A stretch of DNA of 64,000 nucleotides from an uncultured Victivallaceae bacterium (GTDB lineage Bacteria; Verrucomicrobiota; Lentisphaeria; Victivallales; GWF2-50-93), in NCBI GenBank assembly GCA_964636325.1, contig CAZWRV010000003.1:1824-65823 (forward strand). The letters run 5' to 3'. A model generated the notes under the pieces. That model was not told the DNA's origin. It made no database searches and saw only the letters and a program-made list of their open reading frames with translations. The translations under genes and the position numbers were made by a program. Shown one piece after another: positions 1 through 18,904 of the stretch. The stretch's first letter is position 1, and the number at the start of each line of letters is the position of its first letter.

Positions 1-3000
1 ATCCGCGGCCAGCCGCGCCCCTACGGCGCGGGAATCGACATGGGCTGCGACGAGTTCGCCGACTCCGACAACGACGGCCTCGCCGACTGGTGGGAGCTCG
101 AACACTTCGGCGACCTCGCCGCCTCCGACGGCACCGGCGACTTCGACTCAGACACCTACTCCGACATGGCCGAATACCTCGCAGGTTCCAATCCGACAAA
201 GCCCGAGAGCAAGCCCTTGTACACCATCACATTCACCGCTTCTGCGGGCGGTGTCCTCACTTGTCCTCCAAGTCCTCCCTGTCCTCCCGCTCCTTCAATC
301 GTCCTCACCGCCCGCCACGGCTTCGACGCCCAATCCGTCACCGCCGCGCCGGACGATGGTTACCAGTTCACAGGATGGTCCGGCGCCGCAACCGGAACAA
401 TGAACCCCCTCAAAATCCGCAACGTCACCTCCGATATGTCTGTCACTGCTAATTTCGCAGTAAAAACATACACAGTAAATATTTCCGCAGGTTCTGGCGG
501 AAAAATTGAAGGTGCCGCGATTCAGGTTGTGAATCACGGCACGGACACCGCCGCAGTCGAGGCAGTGCCGGACGAAGGCTACTCTTTCATAGGCTGGTCC
601 GTCGATTACATCGGCACCGAAAACCCGCTCGCAATTCCGAACGTCACTTCAAACATGAATATCACCGCCAACTTTGAATTGAAGACTTATACCGTCACAT
701 ATTCCGCAGGGCCGGGCGGTTCGATCAGCGGCGAGTCGCCGCAGACCGTGAACCACGGCGCTGACGGCACCCCTGTCACCGCAGTTCCAGACGACGGCTA
801 CCGCTTCATAGGCTGGAGCGACGGCTCCACCGCCAATCCCCGCGCCGACGAAAACGTCACGGCGGACATAAATGTCACCGCGAACTTCGAACAGGCTTAT
901 CGGGTTGAATTCCGCGCCCTTACCGGTGGAAGGCTCATCGGCGAGGCGGTCCAGCTCGTCCCGCCCGGCGGCTCGTGCTCGCCGGTGACCGCGGTGGCGG
1001 ACGCAGGATGGCATTTTACCCGATGGATCGTGTCCGGCGACAATTATTCCATCGACAATCCCCTGACAATTTCAAACGTCCAGTCCGACATGCTTCTTGA
1101 AGCGGCATTCCATGCGGACGCCGCCGGGCTTTCCGTCAACGGCGGCAGGCTGTATACCAATTCACGGGACATCGTCATTGATCCATTGACCTGCCAGTTA
1201 CCGGAAATAAGGATAGGCTCATCCCCGACCTTGCTTGACAGCGTTGAGGTTCAGAATCCACTCGAACCATTCGTCTACACGCTCCCTGACAAAGGGGATG
1301 GCAGATATATGCTCTATTTCCAATATTATGATTCTGGAGTCTCGTGCAGCGACATCATAGGCAAATCGGTGATGCTTGACACGCTTGCGCCTTCCGTGAC
1401 TATAACACAACCAACCAATGGCGAAACCACCGACCAGGGTTATATTGATCTTCAGGCGCGGGTCTACGATCCCGACCCCGCATCGCTCGGGGAAAGCAGG
1501 CCTGGGAGTGCACTCATTGTGCGGATCAACGGCAAACCGTTCTACGCAATGGACGAGGATATTGTGAGGGACGACAGGTTCAAGCTCAATCCCGGGGAAA
1601 ACACAATAAGCGTCGAGGACGAGGACGAGGCAGGAAATATCTCGTCCGCGACGGTCACGGTGACGTGCGATCCATCAACGGATACCACGGCTCCGGCATT
1701 GTCCGATGTAAATCTCGAAGGAGTTACCGTCCTCCCCGCGAACCTCTCGAAATTCATGCTCCTCGGCGGCATCGACGACTATTTCTCAGACGTCCGCGTA
1801 ACAGTGAATGGCGGAGATCCCATAACCTGTTCCGTTTCCAAGGACTTGGCCGGGAATTGCCAGGCCAGCGCGGTTCTCCCGCTTGAAGAAGGATTGAACA
1901 GCATAGAAGTCACCGCGTTTGACGCCGCAAGAAACACGGACGTCAGGTCGTACTCCGTGGACAAATCCGACAAATACCGCATCGAAATCATATCACCCGA
2001 GGATGGAGCGTTCGCAAACGGAACCGCCACGGACGTAACGGGCTACGTGTGGGAACCTGGCTGGGGCACCCAGGACGAGGATCCGCTGGCCTCCGTGACG
2101 ATAAACGGCGTCGAGTGCGTCATCGGCAGCCCGGATACCGAAGGCAAGCGCAACTTCAGCGCCACAGTCCCGCCAGCCGCGGACGGCGCGGCCACACCAC
2201 TGAAATTCACGGTTTCAACAACAAGCGGCGCGAATGCACCCAATATGTCTCTTAGCCATCTCGACGGTTATGCGATAACAGAATGCTCGAGGACCATGCT
2301 GACATACAACGCCCCGCACAACTTCATTCACAGGTCCGAAGGCCCAGGTTGGTCGTCAGACTGGTCTATCAGAAATTCAATTGGAAACAGCACATATGAA
2401 TGGGAACCGGATTATTCTTGTGCAAAAAGCTGTTACTCTGAAGTTATTAAAACACACTGCAAATCGCCACACTTTGATGACAATGACTGGGACGATGGAA
2501 CTCCAACAGGAAATCCCGACCCGAATCCACCATCCAGTCCCAGCATCTCACCCATTTTCAAAGTCTGCGAGGAAGAGACCCTGCAAATCCCCTGCTATTA
2601 TTATTGTTGGGGGACTGATTACTATTATGAATATGCTGCATCTTCCACGTTTAATAAAACGAACACAACCCTTTCGTTAAACGTTCCGAAAAAATATCAG
2701 GACGCTGGAGCTACTAATCTTGTTTTGTATTTCAGCGGGATAGAGGGGATTCCAGATATTTCAATGCTCAAGTTCAATGGGCAATCACCGATCTTCTATG
2801 ACAATGCCGCAAAAACCGCAGGATATTTTATTCCCGCTGGAACAAAATCTATCACAGTCAGCAAAGGTTCATTTAACTGGGATGAATTACCGGAATATGC
2901 GGCTGACAGTGGAACCATTCCCTACTATCTCAGATATTTTGGTTCGTTGGTCTCATATGAATTCTTTGTAGAAAAGAAAAAGATCGAATTCAATAATTAT

Positions 3001-4041
3001 TACATTAAAGATATTATCACATTGAAATTACCACCTGCGGTTAGGCGCTTTTACAGTGAGCCAGAGGGACAAAGAAGCTATACAACAATACTTAATGTTA
3101 AGGCAAACAAAGACATGAAATATCGCCTCATCATTAGTCGAACCAACGGTTCTAAAGGTAGTGCCGTTTTCGAGTATGGTGAATTTCCTGGACAAAGAGA
3201 TATTGAATATTTGGGGAAGGGGATTGAAGAAGAAGTGAAAGTAATTGGGACCGAGGAAAGCGATTTAGAAGATAATTTATCGATTATTGTAAAGGACGAA
3301 TATTGGAATGATTTACCGAGCAACCAGATTAAAGCTTATAGAATTATTAAGAAGCCTAATGGATCAATTGAAGAAATACCCGTCGGAGCTATCAATTTTA
3401 TTGTTTTCAGTAAAATCATAAATGATTTCGAGTCTAGCGAAACTCAACATAAAGACACAAATGCTTCATGTATAAAATGCGCTAAACAACAGAATAATGA
3501 TCTTCTTCCACCTAAACATGTTCATTATGCAGTTCCTCCTGATTACGATGAAATCACGCCATGTGATCATGGTGAATATAATTTTATCTGTAAACATTGT
3601 AGCTCCAATTGTTTCAGATGTTGTTTGAAAGTTAAATATGGTGGAAATCAAGATGATTACCATGAATTAACAATTGGAGCTAAAACTGTTGAGGATGATC
3701 ATGGATTTGGGCTTTCATCATTTTCATTTAGAGAATATGTTAAAGATAAATGGAAAATCGTCCTAGGAAAAGAAGACGATCCACAATATTCATTTATCTA
3801 CGATAAAATCCCAAAAGATGGCTCTTGTGCAACAAGCATATCGACTCCCTTGAATCATGGTGTTATTACCCACGGGTGCCGCCATAATGATGAAGATGGA
3901 AATATTACAAAAGAAGAAATATTATATTGGGATCCTAAATATGCCGAAAATTGTTGGGCTGAAATGTTGGAAAAGGAAGAGGAAGTGTTACCCCCTAATA
4001 TATATATATTAGAAATATTATATAAAATGCAAAGCCAATGA
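1..4041 (+). CDS. Giant secreted/surface repeat protein, 5-prime partial, with an AT-rich C-terminal module of unknown family
   Basis: Frame 1 is open from base 1 with no stop before the ATG at 40. The upstream residues ..RPYGAGIDMGCDEF resemble the G-x-x-ID-x-G-x-x-E motif that closes parallel beta-helix surface proteins, so the gene starts outside the window. It carries Asp-rich DSDNDG / DFDSD TSP3-like motifs, four ~70-aa InlB B-repeat-like modules and Ig-like stretches (LDTLAPSVTITQP.., TAPALSDV..). From about nt 2370 the sequence becomes AT-rich, N/K/I/Y-rich and Cys-clustered with no family I recognise. Confidence 0.8.
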   Translation: MRGQPRPYGAGIDMGCDEFADSDNDGLADWWELEHFGDLAASDGTGDFDSDTYSDMAEYLAGSNPTKPESKPLYTITFTASAGGVLTCPPSPPCPPAPSIVLTARHGFDAQSVTAAPDDGYQFTGWSGAATGTMNPLKIRNVTSDMSVTANFAVKTYTVNISAGSGGKIEGAAIQVVNHGTDTAAVEAVPDEGYSFIGWSVDYIGTENPLAIPNVTSNMNITANFELKTYTVTYSAGPGGSISGESPQTVNHGADGTPVTAVPDDGYRFIGWSDGSTANPRADENVTADINVTANFEQAYRVEFRALTGGRLIGEAVQLVPPGGSCSPVTAVADAGWHFTRWIVSGDNYSIDNPLTISNVQSDMLLEAAFHADAAGLSVNGGRLYTNSRDIVIDPLTCQLPEIRIGSSPTLLDSVEVQNPLEPFVYTLPDKGDGRYMLYFQYYDSGVSCSDIIGKSVMLDTLAPSVTITQPTNGETTDQGYIDLQARVYDPDPASLGESRPGSALIVRINGKPFYAMDEDIVRDDRFKLNPGENTISVEDEDEAGNISSATVTVTCDPSTDTTAPALSDVNLEGVTVLPANLSKFMLLGGIDDYFSDVRVTVNGGDPITCSVSKDLAGNCQASAVLPLEEGLNSIEVTAFDAARNTDVRSYSVDKSDKYRIEIISPEDGAFANGTATDVTGYVWEPGWGTQDEDPLASVTINGVECVIGSPDTEGKRNFSATVPPAADGAATPLKFTVSTTSGANAPNMSLSHLDGYAITECSRTMLTYNAPHNFIHRSEGPGWSSDWSIRNSIGNSTYEWEPDYSCAKSCYSEVIKTHCKSPHFDDNDWDDGTPTGNPDPNPPSSPSISPIFKVCEEETLQIPCYYYCWGTDYYYEYAASSTFNKTNTTLSLNVPKKYQDAGATNLVLYFSGIEGIPDISMLKFNGQSPIFYDNAAKTAGYFIPAGTKSITVSKGSFNWDELPEYAADSGTIPYYLRYFGSLVSYEFFVEKKKIEFNNYYIKDIITLKLPPAVRRFYSEPEGQRSYTTILNVKANKDMKYRLIISRTNGSKGSAVFEYGEFPGQRDIEYLGKGIEEEVKVIGTEESDLEDNLSIIVKDEYWNDLPSNQIKAYRIIKKPNGSIEEIPVGAINFIVFSKIINDFESSETQHKDTNASCIKCAKQQNNDLLPPKHVHYAVPPDYDEITPCDHGEYNFICKHCSSNCFRCCLKVKYGGNQDDYHELTIGAKTVEDDHGFGLSSFSFREYVKDKWKIVLGKEDDPQYSFIYDKIPKDGSCATSISTPLNHGVITHGCRHNDEDGNITKEEILYWDPKYAENCWAEMLEKEEEVLPPNIYILEILYKMQSQ
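220..1116 (+). repeat. Four tandem ~70-aa coding repeats (InlB B-repeat / Listeria-Bacteroides repeat type) inside the giant protein
   Basis: The units are aa 61-141, 143-213, 216-284 and 287-357. Each follows the pattern Y-T/R-V-x-F/Y..G G.I......V.HG.D...TA.PD.GY.F.GWS....NP....NVTSDM.VTANF. Confidence 0.7.
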
Positions 4042-4106
4042 TTATCTTGTATCTTATGAAGTAATTTATTCTCATTTTTTAAATATATTTATGAAAGGGA
4101 TTGCTT

Positions 4107-4940
4107 ATGGTTACATGGCATTATTTTATCATAATAATTGTTCTATTTTATACATTTAATATTCAATCAGCTAATGAAAATTATTTTGATGAGAAAATCA
4201 TAATAAGCGAAATATGTATTAAAAAAGAAAATAATGAATATCCTAAATGGTTAGTATTAATTTCTAATTTGAATGAAACGATAAATCTTAAGAATTGGTC
4301 ATTAAGCGATTCGCAAAAATGCTTTTATAAATTTACTGAAAATATAAATATTGAGCCCAAGGGAATATTAATGATATGCTTTTATCCTGATGATACTCCT
4401 TCTTCAGATTTTAAAGATAAAATATCAGCTAATGTTAATCAAATAATCGATATATTCAAATGCGAGCCTTTCGATAGCAAAGGAGAATATAATATCTCAC
4501 AGATATTAATAAATAAAACTGTACCTTTATATTTGAGTTTAGGGGAGAAACAATCGATTCATGAATTAGAGCAAACAACAGGGCCAATGTATAAATGGTT
4601 TTATGATGAATCATTAAAATATATTAAAATAAACAATTATCCTGATAATTACAAATATCCTATTATGAGTATTATGTCACAAATTCCAAGAGAATATGAT
4701 GAAGTGGCATTAATTGATGACAAAAACAATCTTATTTCTTACATTAGCTGGGGGAATCAGGCAAATGTGAAGCCATCGCATGAGTTTAAATGGGAAAAAC
4801 AAGTAAAAGATAATTGTAGCTTATATAGAACTTATCCATTAACTATAAATATAAAATCTACAAATGCAATAATTTTAAAAAGGATATCTAAATCAATATT
4901 CGAATTTGAGAAGGATATAAAAAGTTCATTTTTAAAATAG
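4107..4940 (+). CDS. AT-rich hypothetical protein with an N-terminal hydrophobic anchor/signal and a possible lamin-tail-domain (LTD)-like segment
   Basis: ATG at 4107 is preceded by aaaggga; the ORF track starts at TTG 4101. The N-terminus is WHYFIIIIVLFYTF. The segment IISEICIKK..YPKWLVLISNLNETINLKNWSLSDSQKCFYKF..IEPKGILMICF resembles the LTD pattern (I.E...... e.iEL.N....vdLsgW.Lsd....y.f....l.pg....v). Its base composition matches the AT-rich tail of the upstream gene. Confidence 0.55.
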   Translation: MVTWHYFIIIIVLFYTFNIQSANENYFDEKIIISEICIKKENNEYPKWLVLISNLNETINLKNWSLSDSQKCFYKFTENINIEPKGILMICFYPDDTPSSDFKDKISANVNQIIDIFKCEPFDSKGEYNISQILINKTVPLYLSLGEKQSIHELEQTTGPMYKWFYDESLKYIKINNYPDNYKYPIMSIMSQIPREYDEVALIDDKNNLISYISWGNQANVKPSHEFKWEKQVKDNCSLYRTYPLTINIKSTNAIILKRISKSIFEFEKDIKSSFLK

Positions 4941-5214
4941 CAAGCTTGGTAATATCGCTGGGGGGAAGGGACGTTCACACTTAAGTGGCTGAAATAAAAT
5001 GGGATGCGGCGGATATGACGGCGCATGTCCGGGGGGAAGCTTGTACTTTCAGGCCGGTAAATCCACGCATCCCTATATCCACCCTAACTATATCCACCCC
5101 CGGGGCTCGGTAACATCCATAACAACAGATAGTTATGAACATAATATGCCCAGATAATAGCGTTAGAATGAAACAAAGAGGCATCCATTTGACTTTAAGG
5201 ATAGCAATGCTATA

Positions 5215-5919
5215 TTGTCCTCCATGACCACCAGCCGACAATTTCAGGGCGGGCGCAGCTACCATGTGACCCAGCGCTGCCACGGGCGGGCTTTCCTGCT
5301 GGGCAAGGACGTGGATCGGCGCGCCTACCTGAATCTGCTGTGGTCGGGCAAGCAGACGTGGCCGGTGTCGCTGCTGGCGTACAACCTGACCAGCAATCAT
5401 GTGCATCTGCTGGTGTCGGCCGAGGAGCTTGGGGCGCTGAGCGGATTCATGGCCCATGTGTCGGGAGCGATGGGCCGCAACTACAACCGCCGCAAGGAAC
5501 GGGCCGGTGCGTTCTGGGAGGGGCGTTACCGGACGACGCTGATCCAGGACGGCAGCCACCTGTCGCGTTGCCTGTTCTACATCGAGATGAACATGGTGCG
5601 GGCGGGGGTGGTGGATCATCCCCGGGAATGGCCTTGGAGCTCTTACCGGGAGTTGTGCGGGGAACGCCAGCGGTATCGGCTGCTCGACCAGGAACTGCTT
5701 TTGCGCAAGCTAGACTGCGGCCCGGACCGCGGGCTGTTCCGGCAATGGTACCGGGCCACCCTCGACCAGATGAGCGAGCGCCGGGCGGAGCTCCGCCGTG
5801 AGCCATGGTGGGCCGGAGCCAAGGTCGTAGGCGACCGCCAGTTCGTCACCCACCAGGTTGACAAGCGCCGCGCCGAGGATATCGTCGAACTGGAAGATGG
5901 CACCTGCACTTGGGCTTAA
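5215..5919 (+). CDS. HUH/Y1 transposase, IS200-like / REP-associated tyrosine transposase (RAYT)-type
   Basis: The HUH motif is in SNHVHLLVS and the catalytic-Tyr helix motif is in RCLFYIEMNMVRAGVV, followed by WPWSSY. Length is ~230 aa. No tnpB or other IS gene is adjacent. The gene is GC-rich and flanked by AT-rich DNA. Confidence 0.7.
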   Translation: MSSMTTSRQFQGGRSYHVTQRCHGRAFLLGKDVDRRAYLNLLWSGKQTWPVSLLAYNLTSNHVHLLVSAEELGALSGFMAHVSGAMGRNYNRRKERAGAFWEGRYRTTLIQDGSHLSRCLFYIEMNMVRAGVVDHPREWPWSSYRELCGERQRYRLLDQELLLRKLDCGPDRGLFRQWYRATLDQMSERRAELRREPWWAGAKVVGDRQFVTHQVDKRRAEDIVELEDGTCTWA

Positions 5920-6102
5920 AATCGATAAAATGTCCAGTAAATGAATAATGGTTTATAACTAGGTATCATATCCCGGGATGGAGTAATAAAAGTATTCAAA
6001 CTATGGGGTATTCAAACTTGCGGCTCCGCCAGAAAATATCCCGATCCGGCTTGCATTTCCTGCAATCCGCATAAAATTACATTAAATGCTTGGAGCATTG
6101 CC

Positions 6103-6500
6103 ATGAAAAGCCATTTCCGCAAGCGCAAACTCCTTCACCTTGATCGAACTGCTTGTCGTGATCGCGATCATCGCCATTCTCGCAAGCCTGCTAATGCCGG
6201 CCCTCAGCAGTGCCAGGGCAGAGGCCCGCCAGATCAGCTGCCTCAACGACATCAGGCAGCTTTATTCCGCCTCATACAACTACATCCAGGACAACAGCGA
6301 GTGGGTGCCTTTGCACGTCATGCCGGTCAACGGGAGGAACTGACCCACCTGGGTGGCGCTTCCAAGCTATCATAAATATTTGAGCGTGCCGGCCAATGAT
6401 CCCAACAAATAACGTATATTTCTTCGACGGCCACGGCACCGGGTTGCACATCAACGATCCGGAACACAGCAAGGAAGCCGCATACTGCATGTGGAAATAG
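6103..6500 (+). pseudogene. Decayed prepilin-type N-terminal cleavage/methylation (H-X9-DG / DUF1559-like) gene
   Basis: The leader MKSHFRKRK is in frame 1. The cleavage/methylation helix [24 protein letters not shown] is in frame 2, with no start of its own and a stop at 6343. The C-terminal remnant NNVYFFDGHGTGLHIND is in frame 3 and ends at 6500. It parallels [15 protein letters not shown] of the intact paralogue at 18086-18904. Total span is ~400 nt against ~820 nt for the intact gene. Confidence 0.6.
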
Positions 6501-6577
6501 ATGTCGCCGGTCGTACTAAAAAAAAGCGGCTCGGCATTTGAGGCCGAGCCGCCGTTGTGCCTCATGACGGAGACGTC

Positions 6578-7009
6578 TTATTTCTTCCCCTTGACGCTCC
6601 ACTCGTAGAGGTCGAACGTCTCGCCCTCCTTCTCGAGCTCCTTGTACTTCTTCTTGCCGGAGTATTGGACGAAGGCGTCCGTCAGATTCCAGATCACTCC
6701 GCCGAACTCGAGGTATACGCCCTTGACCTCGCCGGAGACGGAACCGACTTCCGCGTCCGAGAGGTCCAGGATGTTGGTGTCGGTGTCAGGCAGGGGTTTG
6801 CCTGTGATCGTGACGACGAGCTCCTTCTTGTCGATCTTGTTCCACTTGAACGTGATCTTCTCGACGGTCTTTTCCTTCTCGTTGTCGTCGACCTCCTTTA
6901 TCGTGAAGACGGCGGATCCGCCCTTCTCCCCCTTGGGTGTGATCTTCGCATCGCTTTTACTTATGGTATAAGATGCGGTTACGACGTTACAAACGGCTGC
7001 AAGAAAATT
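6578..7009 (-). pseudogene. 143-codon open frame with host-like codon bias but no ATG/GTG/TTG start; probable 5-prime-truncated small exported/lipoprotein gene
   Basis: My own minus-strand translation gives NFLAAVCNVVTASYTISKSDAKITPKGEKGGSAVFTIKEVDDNEKEKTVEKITFKWNKIDKKELVVTITGKPLPDTDTNILDLSDAEVGSVSGEVKGVYLEFGGVIWNLTDAFVQYSGKKKYKELEKEGETFDLYEWSVKGKK*. Stop TAA is at 6578-6580. An in-frame TAA sits at 7010-7012 directly upstream. Codons strongly end in G/C, as in neighbouring genes. It is absent from the ORF track because the only start-type codon is a GTG about 30 codons from the end. FLAAVC looks like the tail of a signal/lipobox. Confidence 0.4.
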
Positions 7010-7038
7010 TTAAATGAAGATGTGTAGATTGGCTTATT

Positions 7039-7146
7039 TTACCCCCCCCCAAGAAGTGCAGTTTTCGGGCAATAACCCTAAGGCCACAATACCCTTAACT
7101 TGGATTGACATTCTTACATGTCAAGAGAGGGAGGGGGGGGGGGTAA
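7039..7146. repeat. Inverted repeat built on homopolymer tracts: TTACCCCCCCCC ... GGGGGGGGGTAA
   Basis: The C9 run is at 7042-7050 and the G11 run at 7133-7143. The 12-nt arms at 7039-7050 and 7135-7146 are exact reverse complements, separated by ~84 nt that has stops in all three minus-strand frames. Confidence 0.7.
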
Positions 7147-7187
7147 TTATTTTCTATTTTTTTTTCAACTTCCTCAAACTCGATCAT

Positions 7188-7219
7188 CTTTGTCGTGAGC
7201 TTTGTCGCGAGCTTTGTCG
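7188..7219 (-). repeat. Three tandem 12-nt units containing CGACAAAG (read on the minus strand); copy A of a two-locus motif
   Basis: CTTTGTCG occurs at 7188, 7200 and 7212 on the plus strand with an exact 12-nt period. The same CGACAAAG x3 array with a 12-nt period occurs at 29107-29138. A perfect 8-bp hairpin GGTTGAGC-CAT-GCTCAACC lies at 7230-7248. Confidence 0.65.
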
Positions 7220-7444
7220 TCTTCCGGAGGGTTGAGCCATGCTCAACCACGGCTCAGCACCCGCCTTCGCTGGGAAGCTACGGCGCGGCAGGCGGCTTCG
7301 CCCTCCATAGGATACGTTGCACGATCCAAGGGCGACATTAATGCCGAGCTGGGGCTCGGCGTTCCCAGGGCTCGTCCGTCAGTGTTTTGTAATTGCCGCC
7401 ATACCTCTTATAGTATGTGATTTTACGGGCGCTTCCTACTCTTT

Positions 7445-9049
7445 ATGAAAAGAATTGTTTCTCTTTCCCAGGGCAGTCTGGCGAAGGGCTGGTCATCCGG
7501 GAAAAGTTTGTTCAATATAATATTCCTGGGTTCCGACGGCGGCGAAGACATCCAGACGCTTCGCCTGTCCCTCCGCAGGGTCATAGTCGCATGGCTATAC
7601 GGCTCCGCCTGGATGTATCTGGTCACCGGAGCCGCCTTCACGCGCTACGCGGAGCTGCTGGGCCTTTCTGAGTTCGGATTCGGCCTTCTTGCCGCGATTC
7701 CATTCATCGGGCCGATGATGCAGCTTCCCGCCAGCTACATGCTCGAGCGCTACGGCCACCGCAAGGAGATATTCCTCTGGACCTGCACGATCCACCGCTT
7801 CCTCTGGATCGTCATCGCCGCGCTTCCATGGCTGGTTCCGGCGTCATGGCAGTGGCCTGCGCTGGTGACACTGATGCTGATATCTTCCATTCTCGCGCAT
7901 TTGGCGACGCCGGCCTGGATGTCGTGGATGGCGGATCTGATACCTGCACGGATCAGAGGCCGCTATTTTTCGCGGCGCATCCAGTTCGGGCAGGCGGTCG
8001 GGTTCGTGATCTCGCTGCTCGCGGGCCTGGCGCTGGACTGGCAGACGTTCGCGCCATGGTTGTCCGAGCATTGCGGCATCAGCTTCTCGTATCCTGTCGC
8101 CGACCAGGCGCGGATGCTCCGCAATACGATCAGCTGCATGTTCGCCATCGCGGGGATCCTCGGGATGATAGACATCCTGATCTTCATCAAGGTGCCGGAC
8201 GAGAAGCACAAGCTGCACCGGCCGCAGTTCAGCCTCTCCGACCTCATTGTGAAACCGCTGGCCAACAGGAACTTCAGGCTCTTCCTGGGATATTCAGCGA
8301 CGATGACCTTCGCGACCGGCTACATAGGGCAGTTCGTATGGCTCTACCTCTTTAACGAGGTTGGCATGAGCAACTTCAAGGCCAACCTGATGCTCGTATG
8401 CATTCCGATCCTTGTCATGGCGTGCACCTATCCCGCCTGGGGCCGCATTGTGGACCGCTTCGGCTCGAAGCCGGCGCTCCTGATAGCGGGGCTCTTCGTA
8501 GTCAACGGCGCGACCGCCTGGGTCTTTGTGACGCGCGACCACTGGGTCCTCGGCTACATGTGCGCGATGATCGCGACGATGGCCTGGCCGGGGATGGATC
8601 TGGCGGCATTCAACCTGCTTCTCCGGATGACGGACGCCGGCGACAAGGGCCGCGCAAGTTCGGCGGTGATCGCGATCAACAGCTTCGTCGTCGCGGTCGC
8701 AGGCGTGCTCAGCGGCATATTCGGGGGCGCAGTGGCGGAATTTCTCGGGAAGAACTGGCATGCGACAGTCCTGGGATGGCCGCTGTCCTACCACGGCGTG
8801 CTCTTCATAATCTCCGCGTTCCTGCGTGCGGCCTCGCTACTCTGGCTCCTTCCGCTCAAGGAGACCAAGGGGGCGGCGCCGCGAGACGCGCTCCGCTACA
8901 TGGTGACCAACGCCTACTCCAACCTCCTGCAGGCGAGCGACTTCTCGATGCGGATGCTCATCACGATGGTCAAGCTCACCTGGAGGCTGCCTATCTCGAC
9001 CTACCGCCAGGTCGAACGCCTGATCGACGACGACGGCAAGGAACCCTGA
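7445..9049 (+). CDS. Polytopic membrane transporter, probably major facilitator superfamily
   Basis: There are about 12 hydrophobic segments in two halves, for example LLAAIPFIGPMMQLPASYMLERYGHRK and VCIPILVMACTYPAWGRIVDRFGSKPALL (D-R-x-G-R/K-like loops). No specific subfamily was recognised. The exact start is uncertain. Confidence 0.6.
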   Translation: MKRIVSLSQGSLAKGWSSGKSLFNIIFLGSDGGEDIQTLRLSLRRVIVAWLYGSAWMYLVTGAAFTRYAELLGLSEFGFGLLAAIPFIGPMMQLPASYMLERYGHRKEIFLWTCTIHRFLWIVIAALPWLVPASWQWPALVTLMLISSILAHLATPAWMSWMADLIPARIRGRYFSRRIQFGQAVGFVISLLAGLALDWQTFAPWLSEHCGISFSYPVADQARMLRNTISCMFAIAGILGMIDILIFIKVPDEKHKLHRPQFSLSDLIVKPLANRNFRLFLGYSATMTFATGYIGQFVWLYLFNEVGMSNFKANLMLVCIPILVMACTYPAWGRIVDRFGSKPALLIAGLFVVNGATAWVFVTRDHWVLGYMCAMIATMAWPGMDLAAFNLLLRMTDAGDKGRASSAVIAINSFVVAVAGVLSGIFGGAVAEFLGKNWHATVLGWPLSYHGVLFIISAFLRAASLLWLLPLKETKGAAPRDALRYMVTNAYSNLLQASDFSMRMLITMVKLTWRLPISTYRQVERLIDDDGKEP

Positions 9050-9098
9050 AAGGGGCCCGCAGTGAAATTCCGGAGGTGCCTGCGTCAGGCGGCAAGGC

Positions 9099-11069
9099 TT
9101 ATTTGAAGGACGGGACGACGATCCCCTTCAGAATGATGTTCTGGCAGAAGACGAAGACGAGCAAGGTGGGAACGGCGGAAACCACCAGCGACGCCATCAC
9201 CAGATAGTTCGGATAATTCTGCTGGAATTCATACAGGAAGACCATCAGAGTCCACATCTTCGGATCCTGGCAGGTGAGGAACGCGAACATGAAGGCGCTG
9301 TATGCGTGGGTGAACGCGCCGAGCGCGATTATCGCGAGGATGGGCTTTGTCATCGGCACCGCCATCCTGCAGAATATCGTGATTTCCGAGGCACCGTCTA
9401 TGAGGGCCGCCTCGTACATCTCCGAAGGCAGGCTGTCGAAGAAGCCCTTGAGCAGGAATATGCTGTATCCGTTGGCGAGGCCCGGCAGGACCAGCGCCGC
9501 GAAAGTGTTGAGGAGGCCGAGATCCTTAAGCAGCAGGAAGCTCGGTATCATTCCAACCGAATGGGGGAAGGCCATGGTCGCGAGCAGGAATAGCATTATC
9601 TTGTTGGTGTAGCTCAGCTTGTAGCGGGAGAGGGCATAGGCCGCGAGCGGATTCACCGTAAGTGCGCAGGCGATCGCCAGCACGACGAATACGATCGTGT
9701 TGAAGAGCGCCCTTCCGTGGACTGCGATCACATTGAACACCATCATGTAGTTGCCGGTCAGGTACTTCCAGAATATGGCCGACCTGCTGGCGCGGAACGT
9801 ATGGATGTCTATCCAGGGGGAGGGGAGCCTGATGTCGGCGGCGTCCCTGAAATCGGAGCCGTACCTCGCGTTGATGGCATCGAGCCCTCCGTATTTGCCG
9901 ATCAGGAAAGACTGGTACATAAGGGCAGGATCCTCGAAGCTTATCTTTTCGGCCGGGACTTTCTTCTCCATGAACTCGATCCATTCGTTGGCCTGCCCCG
10001 TGTAGTCCGTGTCCATCGGGCATGTCGGCGAGAACTTTATCGCGAGCTTCGCATCCCTGGTCTCCTTGGAGAAGTTGCGGTATTTTTCTTCAATGAAATC
10101 CTTGAAGGCCGGCTCCATCGAGGGATCGAGCTTAAGGAATATCACCGGGCACTTCTTCTTGATGAACTCCTCGCGGATGCCGTCGGCAAGAAGCTTTCTT
10201 GAGAATGCGCTGAAGAGGCTGATCTCCGAATGCCTGCGGATTCCGAGCCCTGTGGCCTTCCTTAGATCATCCATCATCGGGAACTTCTCCACGAGGAACT
10301 TCTGGAACGCCATCTCCGCGCTGACCACCCTTACCTTGCCGGCGGGCAGCGTCCTCTTGAACTCGGCCCAGTCGGCATATTTGCTGTCGAGCGGAAGCAC
10401 CCACCTCTGCCGCAGGGGATCCTCATAGGGCGGTGAAACCTGGCTGAACTCGTCCGCGTTCTCGACATATGCCCTGTTCAGCTCCTGGATGGTTCCGTAC
10501 TTCTTCTTCAGCCATTCCCTGTATTCGGGCTTCAGGTCGAGCACCGTGTACGTGCCTGATCCGGCGTCAGTGAAATAGGTGAACTTGTAGAGGTTCGGGC
10601 ACAGTTTGAGGAATTCGTCCCAGTCGGATGCGATCGCTCCGACCTTGGAAGGATCCTTCTCGAAATAGACGCTCAGCGGGTCTTCGAGCCGGGTGACCTT
10701 CCTGATATAGCACGTCTTGCCGGTCCTGTTCGTCCTCTCCACGTCGATTTCGCTCTTTTCCTGGTCGATGACTTCGGCTTCGACCTTGATGTCTATCGGA
10801 TGATACCAAGGATGGCCGTATTCGTAGCCGAGGAAGTTCGTCTTGCACTTGTCGACGATGTATTTCTTGAACAGCATCTTCTCGCTGAAAAGGTATCTAG
10901 GGACAAGCGTGAACTCGTGGTAGTCGGCATATGAGCATATCGAGCTTGAGACCATGAGTGCGAAAGGATAGACCATGGTTACTCCGCCGAGGCAGAGGAC
11001 CACGTAGAAGACGCCTATCAGCGCCGCCGACCTCAGGCTTTTCCTTCCTACGCTAGAAACGAGCGGCAT
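9099..11069 (-). CDS. Carbohydrate-type ABC transporter permease (MalG-like) with a ~400-aa extracytoplasmic insertion after TM1
   Basis: The C-terminal region carries the EAA loop SLPSEMYEAALIDGASEITIFCRMAVPMTKP within five TM segments. The N-terminal TM is LIGVFYVVLCLGGVTMVYPFALMV, followed by a long soluble region. At 656 aa it is about twice the usual permease length. Confidence 0.75.
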   Translation of the reverse strand: MPLVSSVGRKSLRSAALIGVFYVVLCLGGVTMVYPFALMVSSSICSYADYHEFTLVPRYLFSEKMLFKKYIVDKCKTNFLGYEYGHPWYHPIDIKVEAEVIDQEKSEIDVERTNRTGKTCYIRKVTRLEDPLSVYFEKDPSKVGAIASDWDEFLKLCPNLYKFTYFTDAGSGTYTVLDLKPEYREWLKKKYGTIQELNRAYVENADEFSQVSPPYEDPLRQRWVLPLDSKYADWAEFKRTLPAGKVRVVSAEMAFQKFLVEKFPMMDDLRKATGLGIRRHSEISLFSAFSRKLLADGIREEFIKKKCPVIFLKLDPSMEPAFKDFIEEKYRNFSKETRDAKLAIKFSPTCPMDTDYTGQANEWIEFMEKKVPAEKISFEDPALMYQSFLIGKYGGLDAINARYGSDFRDAADIRLPSPWIDIHTFRASRSAIFWKYLTGNYMMVFNVIAVHGRALFNTIVFVVLAIACALTVNPLAAYALSRYKLSYTNKIMLFLLATMAFPHSVGMIPSFLLLKDLGLLNTFAALVLPGLANGYSIFLLKGFFDSLPSEMYEAALIDGASEITIFCRMAVPMTKPILAIIALGAFTHAYSAFMFAFLTCQDPKMWTLMVFLYEFQQNYPNYLVMASLVVSAVPTLLVFVFCQNIILKGIVVPSFK

Positions 11070-11087
11070 GCTTTCCTCCTTGTTCCG

Positions 11088-13835
11088 TCAGGCGTTGTCG
11101 GCCCTTCCGGCCCTTTTGAACTCCACTTTTCCAAGGACCTGGAGCTGGAGCACGGTGAAACCGATCAGCATCGCCCCGAGTATCCAAGCCTCTGCGGTGG
11201 CGAAACCGAAGTTCAGGTAGAGGAACGAGTGGTACCAGATGTCGAGCCCTACCGTCATGGTCTTGTTCACGGGCCCGCCTCCTGTCATCACGAATATGTT
11301 CTCCGAGGCCTGGAACGCCCCGACGAAGGCGCCGAGGAAGTTGATCAGTATCAGCGCCTTGAGGTTCGGCACAAGTATGTGCCAGAACTTGTGGAGGAAT
11401 CCGGCGCCGTCGAGGTCCGCTGCCTCGTACTGGTCCTCCGGAATGCACTTCATGGCGGCGAGATATATCAGGCATCCGGGCCCAGCATGGGCCCATATGC
11501 CGGGGATTATGATGCAGACCATCGCAAGCCCAGGATCCTCCAGGAAATTCTGCGGCGAAATGCCGAAGAGGCCGAGTATCCAGTTCACGGCTCCGTCGGG
11601 CGTAGGATCAAAGAGCAGCTGCTTCCACAGGAACATCGTCACAAGTCCGGTGGTCACGGCGGGCAGGTAATATATGATCCTGAAGAGAACCCCGCCTCTA
11701 GGGATCTCCGTCAGCATTATCGCCAGTATGATCGGAACCAGGAAGCCCATTATGATGGAGAGGAACACATAATAGAAAGTCTGGAAGAGGAACTGCCAGA
11801 AGTTCTTCTCAAGCACCACCTCGATGAAGTTCTGCGTGCCGACGAAGGGGCCTCCTCCGAGTATCTTGAAGTCCTGGAACGCCATCAGCGAGCCCCTGAA
11901 CAGCGGGTAGTACTGCCAGACTGCTATCGAAAGGAACGCAATGGAGAGGAACGACCAGGCATAGATCGTCCTCCTCCGGCGTGTAAGCCCCGGTATGTAG
12001 AAGTCGACCGCCTTCTTCTGGCCTTTCATCTTTGAGCGGAGCATGTATGTGAACGCCAGGACAACGAGAAGGGCGGCAAGGGCTATTGCCCAGTACGAAT
12101 GCGCCTTGTACTTCCTCATCGTCTCCTCGGGGCGCTTGCCGAGGATGGTGGCGTTGACCTCGCGGCAGGTCTTCGCCATGAGGCCCTCCGCCGGCTCCTC
12201 CGGATAAAGTATAGCCATGTCCATCGGATGGCCAAGGCTAACGGTCATGACGTGCGTGAAGCCCCGGCAGTAGGGCTCCACCTCCGTGTTCTTGGCGACG
12301 GACTCGTTGATCTGGATCCATTCCCCGGGAAGATCGTTGTAGTAGTCGATATAGCCATATTTCTTGAGGAGGAACGGGCGGACATACTGGGCCATACCGT
12401 TTTCAACCATTGCCTTGACGCGCATCTGGATCGCCTCCTCGCTCGTCATGAACTTGATATACTGCCACGCGGCCTCCTGGCGTTCAGGCGGGGAAGTCCT
12501 GTTGACCGACAGGTACCATCCGGCGATGAAGCTCTTCACATCATGGCCTTTCCTGGGAGGGAAGGCTGTGAGGCTCCACAGCGTGAGATCGATGTTGGTG
12601 AGGGCGCCCATCGTGGTGATGCCCATGGCGGTCTCGTACCGTTCACCGCGCGTATTCCCGGTCGAACTCCTCGCGATGCCGTTGTAGATTCTGTTCTTCA
12701 CTCCCTCGGAGGAGAGGTCGTATTTCTCGCCGCAGACCGGACATACCGCCATAGAGGACTTCTTCATCTCCGGGGTGATGTCGAATTCGCGCTTCTCATG
12801 CTGCTTGAGGCACCTGAGCCACGGCTGAGTCGCAAGCTTCCTGTAGTATTCTAGCGCGGCGACACCGTTCTCATCGTCGCAGACGAGACGCCACTTGAGT
12901 TCCCTGACGCCTGAAAGATCCGCCCCGCATGCCTTGCACGCCTCCTTCGTTCCACCGGCATACGCCTGCTCATATTCCTTAAGGTTGATCGGGGTTATGC
13001 CGCAGGACATATAGTCGAAGTACGGCGGCTTGACCTCGGCCAGCGCCTTGCAGGAAGGGCATTCCTTGTAGCACTTGACGACATCGCCGCCGGCCGCCCA
13101 GATGAACTGGAGGAAATGCCAGCCCTGGAACATGCCCCTCAGAAGATTGAAGCCGTATGTCGGCAGCTGGTCTGTCACAGTGCCGGGCTCCTTCGACGGC
13201 ACGAAGGTCAGCTTCTTGCCCATCTCCCACATCTCGTCCCAGTCGCGCGGAGGCTTCGACGGATCAAGACCCGCCTTTATGAAAAGATCCTTCCGGTAGG
13301 TCAGGGACATGAAATAGTAGCTCTGCGGAACTGCATATATGCTGCCATCCTTTATGCAGAGTTCCCATACCTTGTCTGGCGCCTCGACCCCGTAATAGTC
13401 CTTCCCCTGATCCTTGAAATCCCTTCTGAAACGGTCGTTCAGGGGTGCAAGGAACCCCTGGTCTATGTAGTCGCCAACCTTGCGGCCGTAGAGGTCGAAG
13501 ACGTCGGGCGCCATCCCGCCGGCGACCGCCAGGAACTGATTGCCCTCCGCCCCGGCGCCCTGAATCTTGAGAGGAACTAGAGTCTTCACATCGATATGAG
13601 GGTGCTTCTTCAGAAAAAGATCGAAGACTTCCCGGTTCGCCTTCTGTTCGACATCCATGCTTCCCTTGGGCGGGATGTTCCAGAGGAGAAGGGTCAGCCG
13701 CTTAGACCCTTCGGATGCCGCCGCCGCATTATTGTCATCGGCCATCAGCTGCTGGCATGGGACATAGACGGTCGCCATGGCAGATGCAATAATGAAAAAC
13801 AAAAGGTTGCGGGTTGCCATCGGAGAACTCCCCAA
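11088..13835 (-). CDS. Fusion of an extracellular solute-binding protein (family 1-like) and an ABC permease (MalF-like)
   Basis: The N-terminal ~560 aa has a signal/anchor and SBP-like sequence (LTLLLWNIPPKG.., QFLAVAGGMAPDVFDLYG, SIYAVPQSYYFMSLTYRKDLF). The C-terminal ~340 aa has six TM segments and the EAA loop IPEDQYEAADLDGAGFLHKFWHILVPNLK. A Cys-rich insert (CYKECPSC, CKAC, CPVC) lies at aa 255-368. Confidence 0.75.
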   Translation of the reverse strand: MGSSPMATRNLLFFIIASAMATVYVPCQQLMADDNNAAAASEGSKRLTLLLWNIPPKGSMDVEQKANREVFDLFLKKHPHIDVKTLVPLKIQGAGAEGNQFLAVAGGMAPDVFDLYGRKVGDYIDQGFLAPLNDRFRRDFKDQGKDYYGVEAPDKVWELCIKDGSIYAVPQSYYFMSLTYRKDLFIKAGLDPSKPPRDWDEMWEMGKKLTFVPSKEPGTVTDQLPTYGFNLLRGMFQGWHFLQFIWAAGGDVVKCYKECPSCKALAEVKPPYFDYMSCGITPINLKEYEQAYAGGTKEACKACGADLSGVRELKWRLVCDDENGVAALEYYRKLATQPWLRCLKQHEKREFDITPEMKKSSMAVCPVCGEKYDLSSEGVKNRIYNGIARSSTGNTRGERYETAMGITTMGALTNIDLTLWSLTAFPPRKGHDVKSFIAGWYLSVNRTSPPERQEAAWQYIKFMTSEEAIQMRVKAMVENGMAQYVRPFLLKKYGYIDYYNDLPGEWIQINESVAKNTEVEPYCRGFTHVMTVSLGHPMDMAILYPEEPAEGLMAKTCREVNATILGKRPEETMRKYKAHSYWAIALAALLVVLAFTYMLRSKMKGQKKAVDFYIPGLTRRRRTIYAWSFLSIAFLSIAVWQYYPLFRGSLMAFQDFKILGGGPFVGTQNFIEVVLEKNFWQFLFQTFYYVFLSIIMGFLVPIILAIMLTEIPRGGVLFRIIYYLPAVTTGLVTMFLWKQLLFDPTPDGAVNWILGLFGISPQNFLEDPGLAMVCIIIPGIWAHAGPGCLIYLAAMKCIPEDQYEAADLDGAGFLHKFWHILVPNLKALILINFLGAFVGAFQASENIFVMTGGGPVNKTMTVGLDIWYHSFLYLNFGFATAEAWILGAMLIGFTVLQLQVLGKVEFKRAGRADNA

Positions 13836-18085: not shown

Positions 18086-18904
18086 TCAGAAGTCGTCCGG
18101 CCTGTAGCTTTTATATGCCTCTCGGAACGGAAGGGCGTCTCCATGCCCGTCCCAGAACAAGTAGTTAGCGACCGATCCGTGCCTCATCACCGCCGAATAA
18201 AAGAGCTTGCTGTTGATCATCGGAAACTGTCCGTCCATCGCGTTCGGATGGTAGAAGACCTGCGAACTTCCCCGGCATTCGCCGAAGAACACCCGCTTGT
18301 CCGGCTTCTTGATGTCGCTGACTCGCGCAAGCTCGACTTCTGAGGGGGTGTCGGAGTGCATCGTCCGGAAATTGGAGTCGTAGCCGCCGTTTAGGGCGCG
18401 GGACTTCGGAGGCGAAAAGGGCTCGGTGTTTATGCCGTAGGCGATCGTCCACCAGTTCCAGGCGCCGCTGTCCGCCTCAGGGGACGGATATGACATGCAG
18501 CCCCAGAAGGGATAGCCGGAATTCTTCATGCAATACTTGTCCTTTATTTCGTTCATCCATGGAAGCCCGTCCGAGTTCGCCAGGCCAGCTGCGCCCGGGG
18601 CGATGTATTGCATCAGGAATGACGGCCAAAGCACCTGTTGGTCGCAAGAAGGGACGAATGTCTTGTTCCGGGGGGGAGTCACATATTCGTTGTAGTCGGA
18701 TGCATATAGGAATTCGGTCGTCCCTATCTGCTTGAGCGTGTTCGCGCACTGTATCTTCTTGCCCGTGTCCCTGGCCCGCTTAAGGGCCGGCAGCAGCATC
18801 GCGGACAGTATCGCGATGATCGCGATCACCACTAGAAGTTCAATAATGGTGAATTGTCTCCCCCTTTTGGCCGGTGGGCATGGCCCTCTGATTCTGCGCT
18901 TCAT
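18086..18904 (-). CDS. Prepilin-type N-terminal cleavage/methylation domain protein with a C-terminal H-X9-DG motif (DUF1559-like)
   Basis: The N-terminus is [28 protein letters not shown]. The C-terminus is [16 protein letters not shown], which is H, nine residues, then DG. It overlaps the LacI stop by 4 nt. Confidence 0.85.

Follow-up and report, generated by a model that had tools for sequence, protein, structure and literature searches.

A Lentisphaerota-restricted module pairing a predicted papain-like hydrolase domain with a lamin tail domain gene, probably exchanged as a unit, at the end of a giant surface protein

The staphopain gene is directly followed by the gene of a specific inhibitor; these inhibitors, the staphostatins, are small beta-barrel proteins of the cytoplasm and lack a signal peptide. 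Polymorphic toxin systems of the CDI, Rhs and MafB type, as defined by Zhang and Aravind, are another known arrangement with which a long surface protein and its adjacent gene can be compared. In T. denticola, the protein C0362 (T-Mac/TDE0362, PDB 9arc) combines an Ig-like ‘120 domain’ with an IdeS/Mac-1-like protease of papain fold (PMC11833123). The locus analysed here lies at the left end of a stretch of 64,000 nucleotides, called the window below, from an uncultured Victivallaceae bacterium (assembly GCA_964636325.1, contig CAZWRV010000003.1, positions 1,824 to 65,823 of the forward strand). It consists of a giant surface protein with an AT-rich 3’ third and, immediately downstream, an AT-rich gene encoding a lamin tail domain (LTD) protein. 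The reading preferred here, with a probability of roughly 0.55, is that these form an AT-rich, horizontally exchanged and Lentisphaerota-restricted module, made up of a papain-like hydrolase and a cognate secreted LTD protein and fused to an InlB/Ig-like stalk, in which the fusion is old and the peptidase/LTD unit was replaced later.

Frame 1 of the window is open from nucleotide (nt) 1 to a stop codon at nt 4039–4041, with a visible product of 1,346 residues, and no stop codon lies 5’ of the ATG at nt 40 in this frame; the left edge of the window thus truncates the surface protein. Within this open reading frame (ORF), the G+C content (GC) falls from 58% to 34%, with a change point at nt 2366 in a two-segment maximum-likelihood scan, and a likelihood scan of the ORF places the change in GC at third codon positions (GC3) at codon 790 (change-point log-likelihood ratio of 88.7, with no value above 8.7 among 300 codon shuffles). 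Recursive segmentation of nt 1–9000 yielded the following composition segments:

nt 1–2366: GC 0.579
nt 2367–3262: GC 0.402
nt 3263–4939: GC 0.284
nt 4940–5218: GC 0.462
nt 5219–5878: GC 0.662

The AT-rich island therefore comprises the 3’ third of the ORF (nt 2367–4041) and the next gene (nt 4107–4940); it is 2.6 kb long and ends at nt 4939, with a second, weaker GC step inside it at nt 3262, and the window outside the segments listed has a GC of 0.53–0.62. By part, GC3 amounts to 0.68 (stalk), 0.39 (middle region), 0.34 (beta-sandwich), 0.22 (peptidase domain) and 0.21 (LTD gene); the island as a whole thus has values of 0.21–0.39, and most other long ORFs of the window have values of about 0.7–0.85. 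The fraction of FYMINK residues (F, Y, M, I, N and K) is 0.21 in the stalk versus 0.34–0.47 in the tail proteins, and the drop in GC3 indicates that the composition signal is synonymous, going beyond an amino-acid effect alone. The first-pass annotation of this DNA had described an abrupt GC-to-AT junction in a continuous ORF, on the basis of hand counts of 41/60 G+C at nt 61–120 and 18/60 at nt 3301–3360. Both counts are exact and the junction is real, but it is not razor-sharp: G+C per 60 nt runs 39, 30, 32, 27 and 23 over nt 2161–2460 and declines further thereafter, such that the step at nt 2366 is graded, rather than a single clean edge. The same annotation had pointed to a small downstream ORF of like composition, and this ORF does share one island, with defined edges, with the tail. 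A scan for a promoter or terminator inside the ORF performed no better than on shuffled sequences and thus provides no support for separate expression of the tail.

Two relatives of the window protein are referred to below: L005, a collinear full-length orthologue followed by an LTD gene on a Lentisphaeria metagenome-assembled genome contig (JAGVIF010000474), and P0093, a partial orthologue. The features of the locus, with amino-acid (aa) positions in the visible product, are as follows:

nt 1–2366, + strand: GC-rich stalk of the giant surface protein, with its N-terminus beyond the window (GC 0.579, GC3 0.68)
nt 2367–3015, + strand: middle region, aa 790–1005 (216 aa), common only to L005 and probably P0093 (GC 0.40, GC3 0.39)
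nt 3016–3390, + strand: beta-sandwich (‘PPAVRR’) domain, aa 1006–1130 (~125 aa), the first part common to stand-alone cassette proteins
nt 3391–4041, + strand: Cys/His-rich domain, aa 1131–1346 plus stop codon (~215 aa), a predicted papain-like cysteine hydrolase (GC 0.33, GC3 0.22)
nt 4107–4940, + strand: LTD partner gene, 277 aa, predicted secreted, Pfam LTD (GC 0.25, GC3 0.21)
nt 4940–5218, no strand: right edge of the island and unique spacer, between change points 4939 and 5218 (GC 0.46)

The continuity of the junction is documented by a Logan contig (L007, run SRR12969846, recorded in two samples), which is 100% identical to nt 385–5206 of the window, with zero mismatches, and spans both edges of the island. 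The product of the partner gene from the ATG at nt 4107 is on record exactly, and a 131-kb NCBI contig contains the LTD protein as well. L005 keeps the same domain order, from TSP3-like repeats through InlB B-repeats, Ig-like domains, middle region and beta-sandwich to the Cys-rich domain, and its identity to the window is 44% (stalk), 28% (middle region), 45–48% (beta-sandwich) and 35–38% (Cys/His-rich domain). The fusion of stalk and tail is, thus, real and conserved. The mis-join envisaged in the first-pass annotation was not found, given the identity of L007 across both edges and the collinearity of L005, and homology among orthologues does not break at aa ~775, where that annotation had proposed to look for a break, since L005 continues through the junction into the same tail family. 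The possibility, raised at the same time, that a relative might carry the same tail was borne out to the extent that L005 shares the full architecture, including a tail of the same kind. Among the stalk orthologues seen (L005 and, in part, P0093), none has an unrelated tail.

The tail belongs to a rare family, with about 15 relatives among some 15 billion proteins; homology searches gave 2 matches in 5.8 billion clusters and 13 in 1.84 billion representatives. A scan of GTDB species genomes with a five-sequence alignment returned three loci, all from Lentisphaerota, and every named source organism of the family belongs to this phylum. A search of JGI metagenome contigs with the tail alignment found no relative, viral contigs and plasmids (tblastn) and viral structures (Foldseek) gave nothing significant, and no phage or plasmid origin is visible. 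The module shared by the family begins at aa 1006, where BLASTP homology to the stand-alone protein P0001 also begins, and consists of the beta-sandwich and the Cys/His-rich domain, followed by a separate LTD gene. In its stand-alone form (P0001, P0002, P0124), it is a protein of ~440 aa with its own signal peptide; in its fused form, it is C-terminal on four N-terminal regions without detectable mutual similarity, namely the stalk of the window and L005, and the corresponding parts of P0127 (1,520 aa), P0128 and P0134.

Other copies of the cassette also stand out from their surroundings in composition. In L003, the cassette has an edge at nt 2024 and a GC3 of 0.31–0.37, versus 0.62–0.65 in the flanks; in L006 (GCA_964436735.1), GC passes from 0.65 to 0.48 (nt 8396–11849) and back to 0.59, the left edge lying inside the 1,520-aa ORF and the right edge in the 3’ end of the LTD gene; and L009, L010 and L011 show the same GC dip at the cassette. 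L005 has only a mild gradient (GC3 from 0.51 to 0.35), without a sharp step. P0127, encoded in a 65%-GC region of L006, shows an in-frame GC drop ~1.1 kb before the shared module, which parallels the offset in the window. Stand-alone cassettes have a TPR-repeat gene upstream (nt 1–1044 of L001, nt 1–894 of L009), and the upstream gene of L001 is homologous to the 773-aa gene 5’ of the fused P0127 in L006 (nt 3601–5922; 25% identity, E 1.5e-23); the ancestral unit may have consisted of three genes.

A gene of LTD type lies 3’ of the tail family on the same strand at nine of nine loci (the window, L001/L002, the ERZ1426829 contig, L003, L004, L005, L006, L009 and L010/L011), the gap between the gene of the peptidase domain and its co-oriented partner being 5–65 nt. 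The window partner scores 35.7 bits against Pfam LTD (PF00932), above the gathering cut-off of 34.3, and six of six homologues have an LTD match. Its N-terminus forms a hydrophobic helix (signal or transmembrane), and its structural model (predicted local distance difference test, pLDDT, 61) was matched by Foldseek to the lamin Ig-fold 3gef_A with a probability of 1.00 and a template-modelling score normalised to the target, TM(target), of 0.68; in the model, this Ig-like fold is split by a helical insertion of ~60 aa. Partners range from 250 to 570 aa across loci and vary in architecture. The LTD signal is weak in L010/L011, where the most divergent members of the family (P0134) are followed by an LTD-like protein (nt 6925–8631 of L010, nt 2397–4109 of L011) with C-terminal BspA-type LRR_5 repeats (E 1.2e-44). 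No paper was found in the literature on the pairing of an LTD protein with such a peptidase-like domain. The co-inherited LTD protein would be a cognate binding partner of the peptidase-like domain, acting as a regulator, an inhibitor or a docking subunit.

The domains of the module have different histories. In neighbour-joining trees built per domain with 500 bootstraps, the beta-sandwich of the window is excluded from a group of L003, P0001 and P0002 (97%) and is placed, weakly, with L005 (58%), its closest relative, whereas the peptidase domain of the window groups with L003, P0001 and P0002 (93%) and, within that group, with L003 and P0001 (86%). Identities follow the same pattern. The window beta-sandwich is 35–36% identical to those of L003 and P0001, below its identity to L005; its peptidase domain is 54–55% identical to those of L003 and P0001 versus 35–38% for L005, and its LTD protein is 42% identical to that of L003 versus 24% for L005. 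L005 resembles P0124 to about the same degree in both domains, which identifies the window copy as the mosaic, and the conflict between the domain trees implies an exchange near aa 1100–1130, where similarity crosses over in sliding windows, close to the GC step at nt 3262 and to a highly conserved ‘FIVFS’ motif (~nt 3300–3390). The agreement of trees and identities indicates a joint exchange of the peptidase domain and the LTD gene, and it is for these two parts only that phylogenetic incongruence accompanies the deviant composition. The beta-sandwich of the window carries an insertion of ~24–35 aa (VKDEYWNDLPSNQIKAYRIIKKPNGSIEE...; nt 3289–3396, aa 1097–1132), which is lacking in the stand-alone proteins and present in a shorter version in L005; it adjoins the inferred recombination breakpoint.

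These data are consistent with the following course of events. Because the module is richer in AT than the GC-rich genomes that host it, it appears to be transferred horizontally, with low-GC Lentisphaerota as the probable source. The fusion in the window lineage would be old, since L005 has it as well; the peptidase domain, together with the LTD gene, would have been replaced later as one unit, by recombination at the boundary between beta-sandwich and peptidase marked by ‘FIVFS’. The claim of a foreign, exchangeable C-terminal cassette made in the first-pass annotation holds up as regards the junction, the conserved unit, the fusions, the AT-rich islands elsewhere and the differing domain histories; it requires correction in that the exchange point is at aa 1100–1130 rather than at the GC junction, and the first 216 aa of the tail are outside the mobile cassette.

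The Cys/His-rich domain, whose Cys cluster had already been quoted, contains invariant Q-H-K-D, CxxC, CxHCxxxCxRxC, QD, H, Y, H, N and G positions across 12–13 homologues. An AlphaFold2 model of aa 1006–1346, built from a 12-sequence alignment (pLDDT 74.5, predicted template-modelling score 0.68), is all-beta over model residues 1–131 and then contains a helix (residues 199–208) that starts at the invariant C199 (C1204) and a five-stranded sheet (strands 271–337) that carries the invariant H281 (H1286) at the start of a strand. This arrangement of a Cys at the N-terminus of a helix and a His on an antiparallel sheet is that of a papain-like fold, in a model of moderate confidence. C199, C203 and H281 are invariant in 13 sequences and the order Cys...His...Asn/Asp is respected in the alignment, with position 306 (in the ‘WDP’ motif) varying between D, N, E and S across the 13 sequences. 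In Foldseek searches, the top PDB match was T. denticola C0362 (E 6.9e-5, over both domains), and staphopain was matched with a probability of 1.00, a TM(target) of 0.47–0.50 and an identity of 16–18% over 172 aligned columns; other Ig-like PDB matches, including PAD4 entries, probably fall on the beta-sandwich. We therefore infer from the model a papain-like cysteine hydrolase decorated with a Zn ribbon. The CxxC pairs suggest C1157, C1160, C1197 and C1200 (nt 3469–3480 and 3589–3600) as candidate Zn ligands; the proposed nucleophile, judging from the model, is C1204 (nt 3610–3612) or C1208, the proposed base H1286 (nt 3856–3858), and D1311 of ‘WDP’ (nt 3931–3933) may be the third residue. 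The Ig-like/InlB stalk would thus carry a cysteine peptidase at its far end.

The middle region has no Pfam or NCBIfam match and is absent from the mobile cassette, with homologues only in the fused orthologue L005 and probably P0093, which appears from its sequence to continue into the same region (the match of L005 to P0093 is weak, E 0.019). P0093 shows no GC drop past the orthologous junction (GC3 from 0.61 to 0.59). The idea that the GC junction marks the fusion of a complete stand-alone gene was rejected, because hhalign detected no relation between the middle region and the N-terminal domain that the stand-alone proteins have (probability 0.1). As for the AT-richness of the middle region and beta-sandwich, the simplest guess is that the entire 3’ part had been replaced earlier by that of an orthologous fused gene from a low-GC relative.

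The stalk contains four InlB B-repeats at ~aa 75–370 (Pfam Flg_new_2, E 2.8e-44, four stretches) and Ig-like domains at aa 371–789, with a Glucodextran_B/Big_13 Pfam match at aa 464–557. Of the modules listed upstream in the first-pass annotation, the InlB B-repeats and Ig-like domains are thus recovered by Pfam, the TSP3 match is sub-threshold (E 0.005), and the visible N-terminus (nt 1–60, IRGQPRPYGAGIDMGCDEF) does resemble the end of a beta-helix-type domain. Its statement that nothing downstream is recognisable also agrees with the searches, there being no Pfam match past ~aa 560 and no NCBIfam match in the tail. The stalk is 35% identical to that of P0093, in which LamG domains precede the similar stalk on its N-terminal side; these stalk proteins thus seem to be modular at their N-terminal end too. 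A search with aa 1–1005 was swamped by InlB B-repeat proteins, P0093 being the sole informative match, a search with aa 371–789 gave one weak match and a metagenome scan with the stalk alignment gave none.

Downstream of the island, at a distance of 275 nt, lies one further gene of note:

nt 5215–5919, + strand: Y1 (IS200-like, RayT-like) transposase gene (Pfam Y1_Tnp, E 1.8e-10; GC3 0.83, host-like)

Its NCBIfam scores are below the cut-offs (NF047646 REP_Tyr_transpos, 68.3 versus 80; NF033573, 20.1 versus 55), no exact record of its product was found for two alternative start codons, and the window holds no second copy. A 67-aa ORF at nt 6140–6343 (+ strand), with a prepilin-type N-terminal motif and a weak DUF1559 match (E 0.013), looks from its sequence like a truncated or frameshifted gene fragment, and an 85-nt stretch at nt 18769–18853 is 75% identical to it. 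Logan contigs of the same organism from two Sequence Read Archive (SRA) runs end at nt 5206 and ~nt 7219, bracketing the transposase and gene fragments, and the stretch between these points is probably repeated, variable or decayed DNA. The first-pass annotation had counted a transposase with pseudogenes as part of the layout, but no repeats or hairpins link the transposase to nt 2366 or 4939, the only matches being short, AT-rich and of the kind expected by chance.

Several points weigh against the reading of a horizontally exchanged papain-like module. Pfam, NCBIfam and PDB sequences provide no sequence link to any peptidase family, and PDB profile searches gave only chance-level matches, such as CmeR (best E 0.05); this would make it a new family, if it is a peptidase at all. 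The fold call comes from one model based on a 12-sequence alignment (the pLDDT of the five models is 48–75), and the Foldseek matches are modest, with query-length-normalised TM-scores (TMq) of only 0.2–0.3. The neighbour-joining trees were computed from 96 and 192 columns. Three positions fail to coincide, namely the GC junction at aa 790, the beginning of the shared cassette at aa 1006 and the tree breakpoint at ~aa 1100–1130 (~1 kb downstream of the GC junction), so the AT-rich middle region calls for an extra assumption, either an earlier replacement by a low-GC orthologue or a mosaic donor. The donor is unsampled and the best identities are 42–55%, such that the word ‘recent’ has only the lack of amelioration to draw on. 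Finally, the AT shift is seen in all copies of the cassette and the gradient in L005 is mild, which could reflect a property of the cassette itself, rather than repeated transfer.

Among the alternatives, two versions of an antagonistic function come closest, and both are considered doubtful. According to the first, a Lentisphaerota-specific effector/partner system, the Zn-ribbon papain-like hydrolase would be carried on long surface stalks or released from them and would act on other cells or on host or matrix proteins, with the LTD protein as its immunity protein or inhibitor and the pair exchanged at the ‘FIVFS’ boundary. The second, equally tentative, is that of a polymorphic toxin, as suggested by the layout seen in the first-pass annotation: the stalk would deliver a C-terminal papain-like toxin to neighbouring cells, and the secreted LTD protein would be a periplasmic immunity protein swapped together with it. 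Such a system would account for a domain that is always at the extreme C-terminus, on unrelated N-terminal regions, followed within 5–65 nt by a co-oriented gene with which it co-varies and is exchanged together, with the breakpoint immediately 5’ of the domain, in DNA of deviant composition; moreover, papain-like amidase effectors with secreted beta-sandwich immunity proteins are known from type VI secretion systems (T6SS). However, linkage alone would make adjacent genes co-vary, and the layout departs from that of such a system on four counts. All stalk orthologues seen share one tail family, without alternative toxins; no Pfam match at E <= 0.1, in the whole protein or in family members, is to a pre-toxin, VENN, PT-TG, HINT or Rhs module; tblastn of the tail and the LTD protein against the 64-kb window returns only their own genes, with no orphan copies or paralogues; and the partners are atypical for immunity proteins, which are usually small, being large (250–570 aa) and of variable architecture, one being fused to leucine-rich repeats. 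The stand-alone forms, in addition, are ordinary Sec-signal proteins with a TPR gene upstream.

Somewhat less credible still is vertical inheritance from an ancestor common to L005, with an AT bias intrinsic to the cassette (due to silencing, low expression or a preference for K, N, I and Y) and a tree conflict produced by rate heterogeneity. The full-length collinear L005, in which GC3 also falls from 5’ to 3’, the AT shift of every cassette copy relative to its flanks and the richness of the tail proteins in FYMINK residues would all be expected in this case. It sits poorly, however, with a signal at synonymous sites that separates the island from most other long ORFs of the window, with edges at nt 2366 and 4939 that count as sharp, with the lack of a drop at the orthologous junction of P0093, and with the position of the window inside the stand-alone clade for the peptidase/LTD part (86–93%) and outside it for the beta-sandwich (97%). 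Assembly of a high-GC contig misjoined to low-GC DNA from another organism, which a source that is probably a metagenome-assembled genome and a large composition step within an ORF might suggest, is effectively refuted by the independently produced and identical Logan contig over both edges, the domain order kept in L005, an open frame of 557 codons in 35%-GC DNA that stop-codon frequencies mark as no chance event, and the return of host-like GC after nt 4940, which would require two in-frame mis-joins.

The analysis describes for the first time a protein family that neither Pfam nor NCBIfam contains. The family and the gene pairing are new and unannotated, although the papain fold and modular surface proteins are already known kinds, and an active-site hypothesis and an obligate partner gene can now be supplied for it. 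The window also offers a clean natural case of an in-frame fusion followed by partial replacement of the C-terminal module on a giant surface protein, readable from composition and domain trees. Should the pair prove to be an effector with its immunity protein or inhibitor, the principle of exchangeable toxin cassettes would also apply to Lentisphaerota, of which few members have been cultured, a function would be assigned to a bacterial LTD protein, and contact-dependent antagonism would gain a new branch within the PVC superphylum; if it is no more than a tethered protease that has a cofactor, it would be a new but otherwise ordinary papain-superfamily member.

The closest overall resemblance is to T-Mac/TDE0362. 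Both are surface or secreted proteins in which Ig-like domains and a beta-sandwich precede a C-terminal cysteine protease of the papain superfamily (predicted, in the case of the window), with the catalytic Cys, or candidate for it, at the start of a helix and the His later, on a strand. The two have no detectable sequence similarity, TM-scores are low (0.2) and the resemblance is at the level of the fold only. The window domain has an extra invariant Cys/His block (CxxC...CxHC) and a QHKD motif, its stalk has InlB B-repeats instead, and we know of no counterpart of the conserved LTD partner gene for T-Mac/TDE0362. At the level of the single domain, the best structural match is staphopain of S. 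aureus (PDB 1pxv, 1y4h), with which the gene pair of the window shares the arrangement of a peptidase gene directly followed by a partner gene; the window domain lacks the Gln six residues ahead of the candidate nucleophile, and its partner, unlike staphostatin, is a predicted secreted LTD Ig-fold protein of 250–570 aa. Polymorphic toxin systems share with the window family the long stalk, the putative enzymatic domain at the C-terminus, the adjacent co-inherited gene, the deviant composition and the recombination just upstream, whereas the window family has a single tail family, lacks both a pre-toxin motif and orphan cassettes, and has a partner that resembles none of the known immunity families. 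Finally, the window partner resembles other bacterial LTD proteins (PF00932) in passing the gathering score and in its predicted lamin Ig-like fold, and differs from them in the helical insertion of ~60 aa that splits this fold and in the strict linkage of its gene to a peptidase-like domain.

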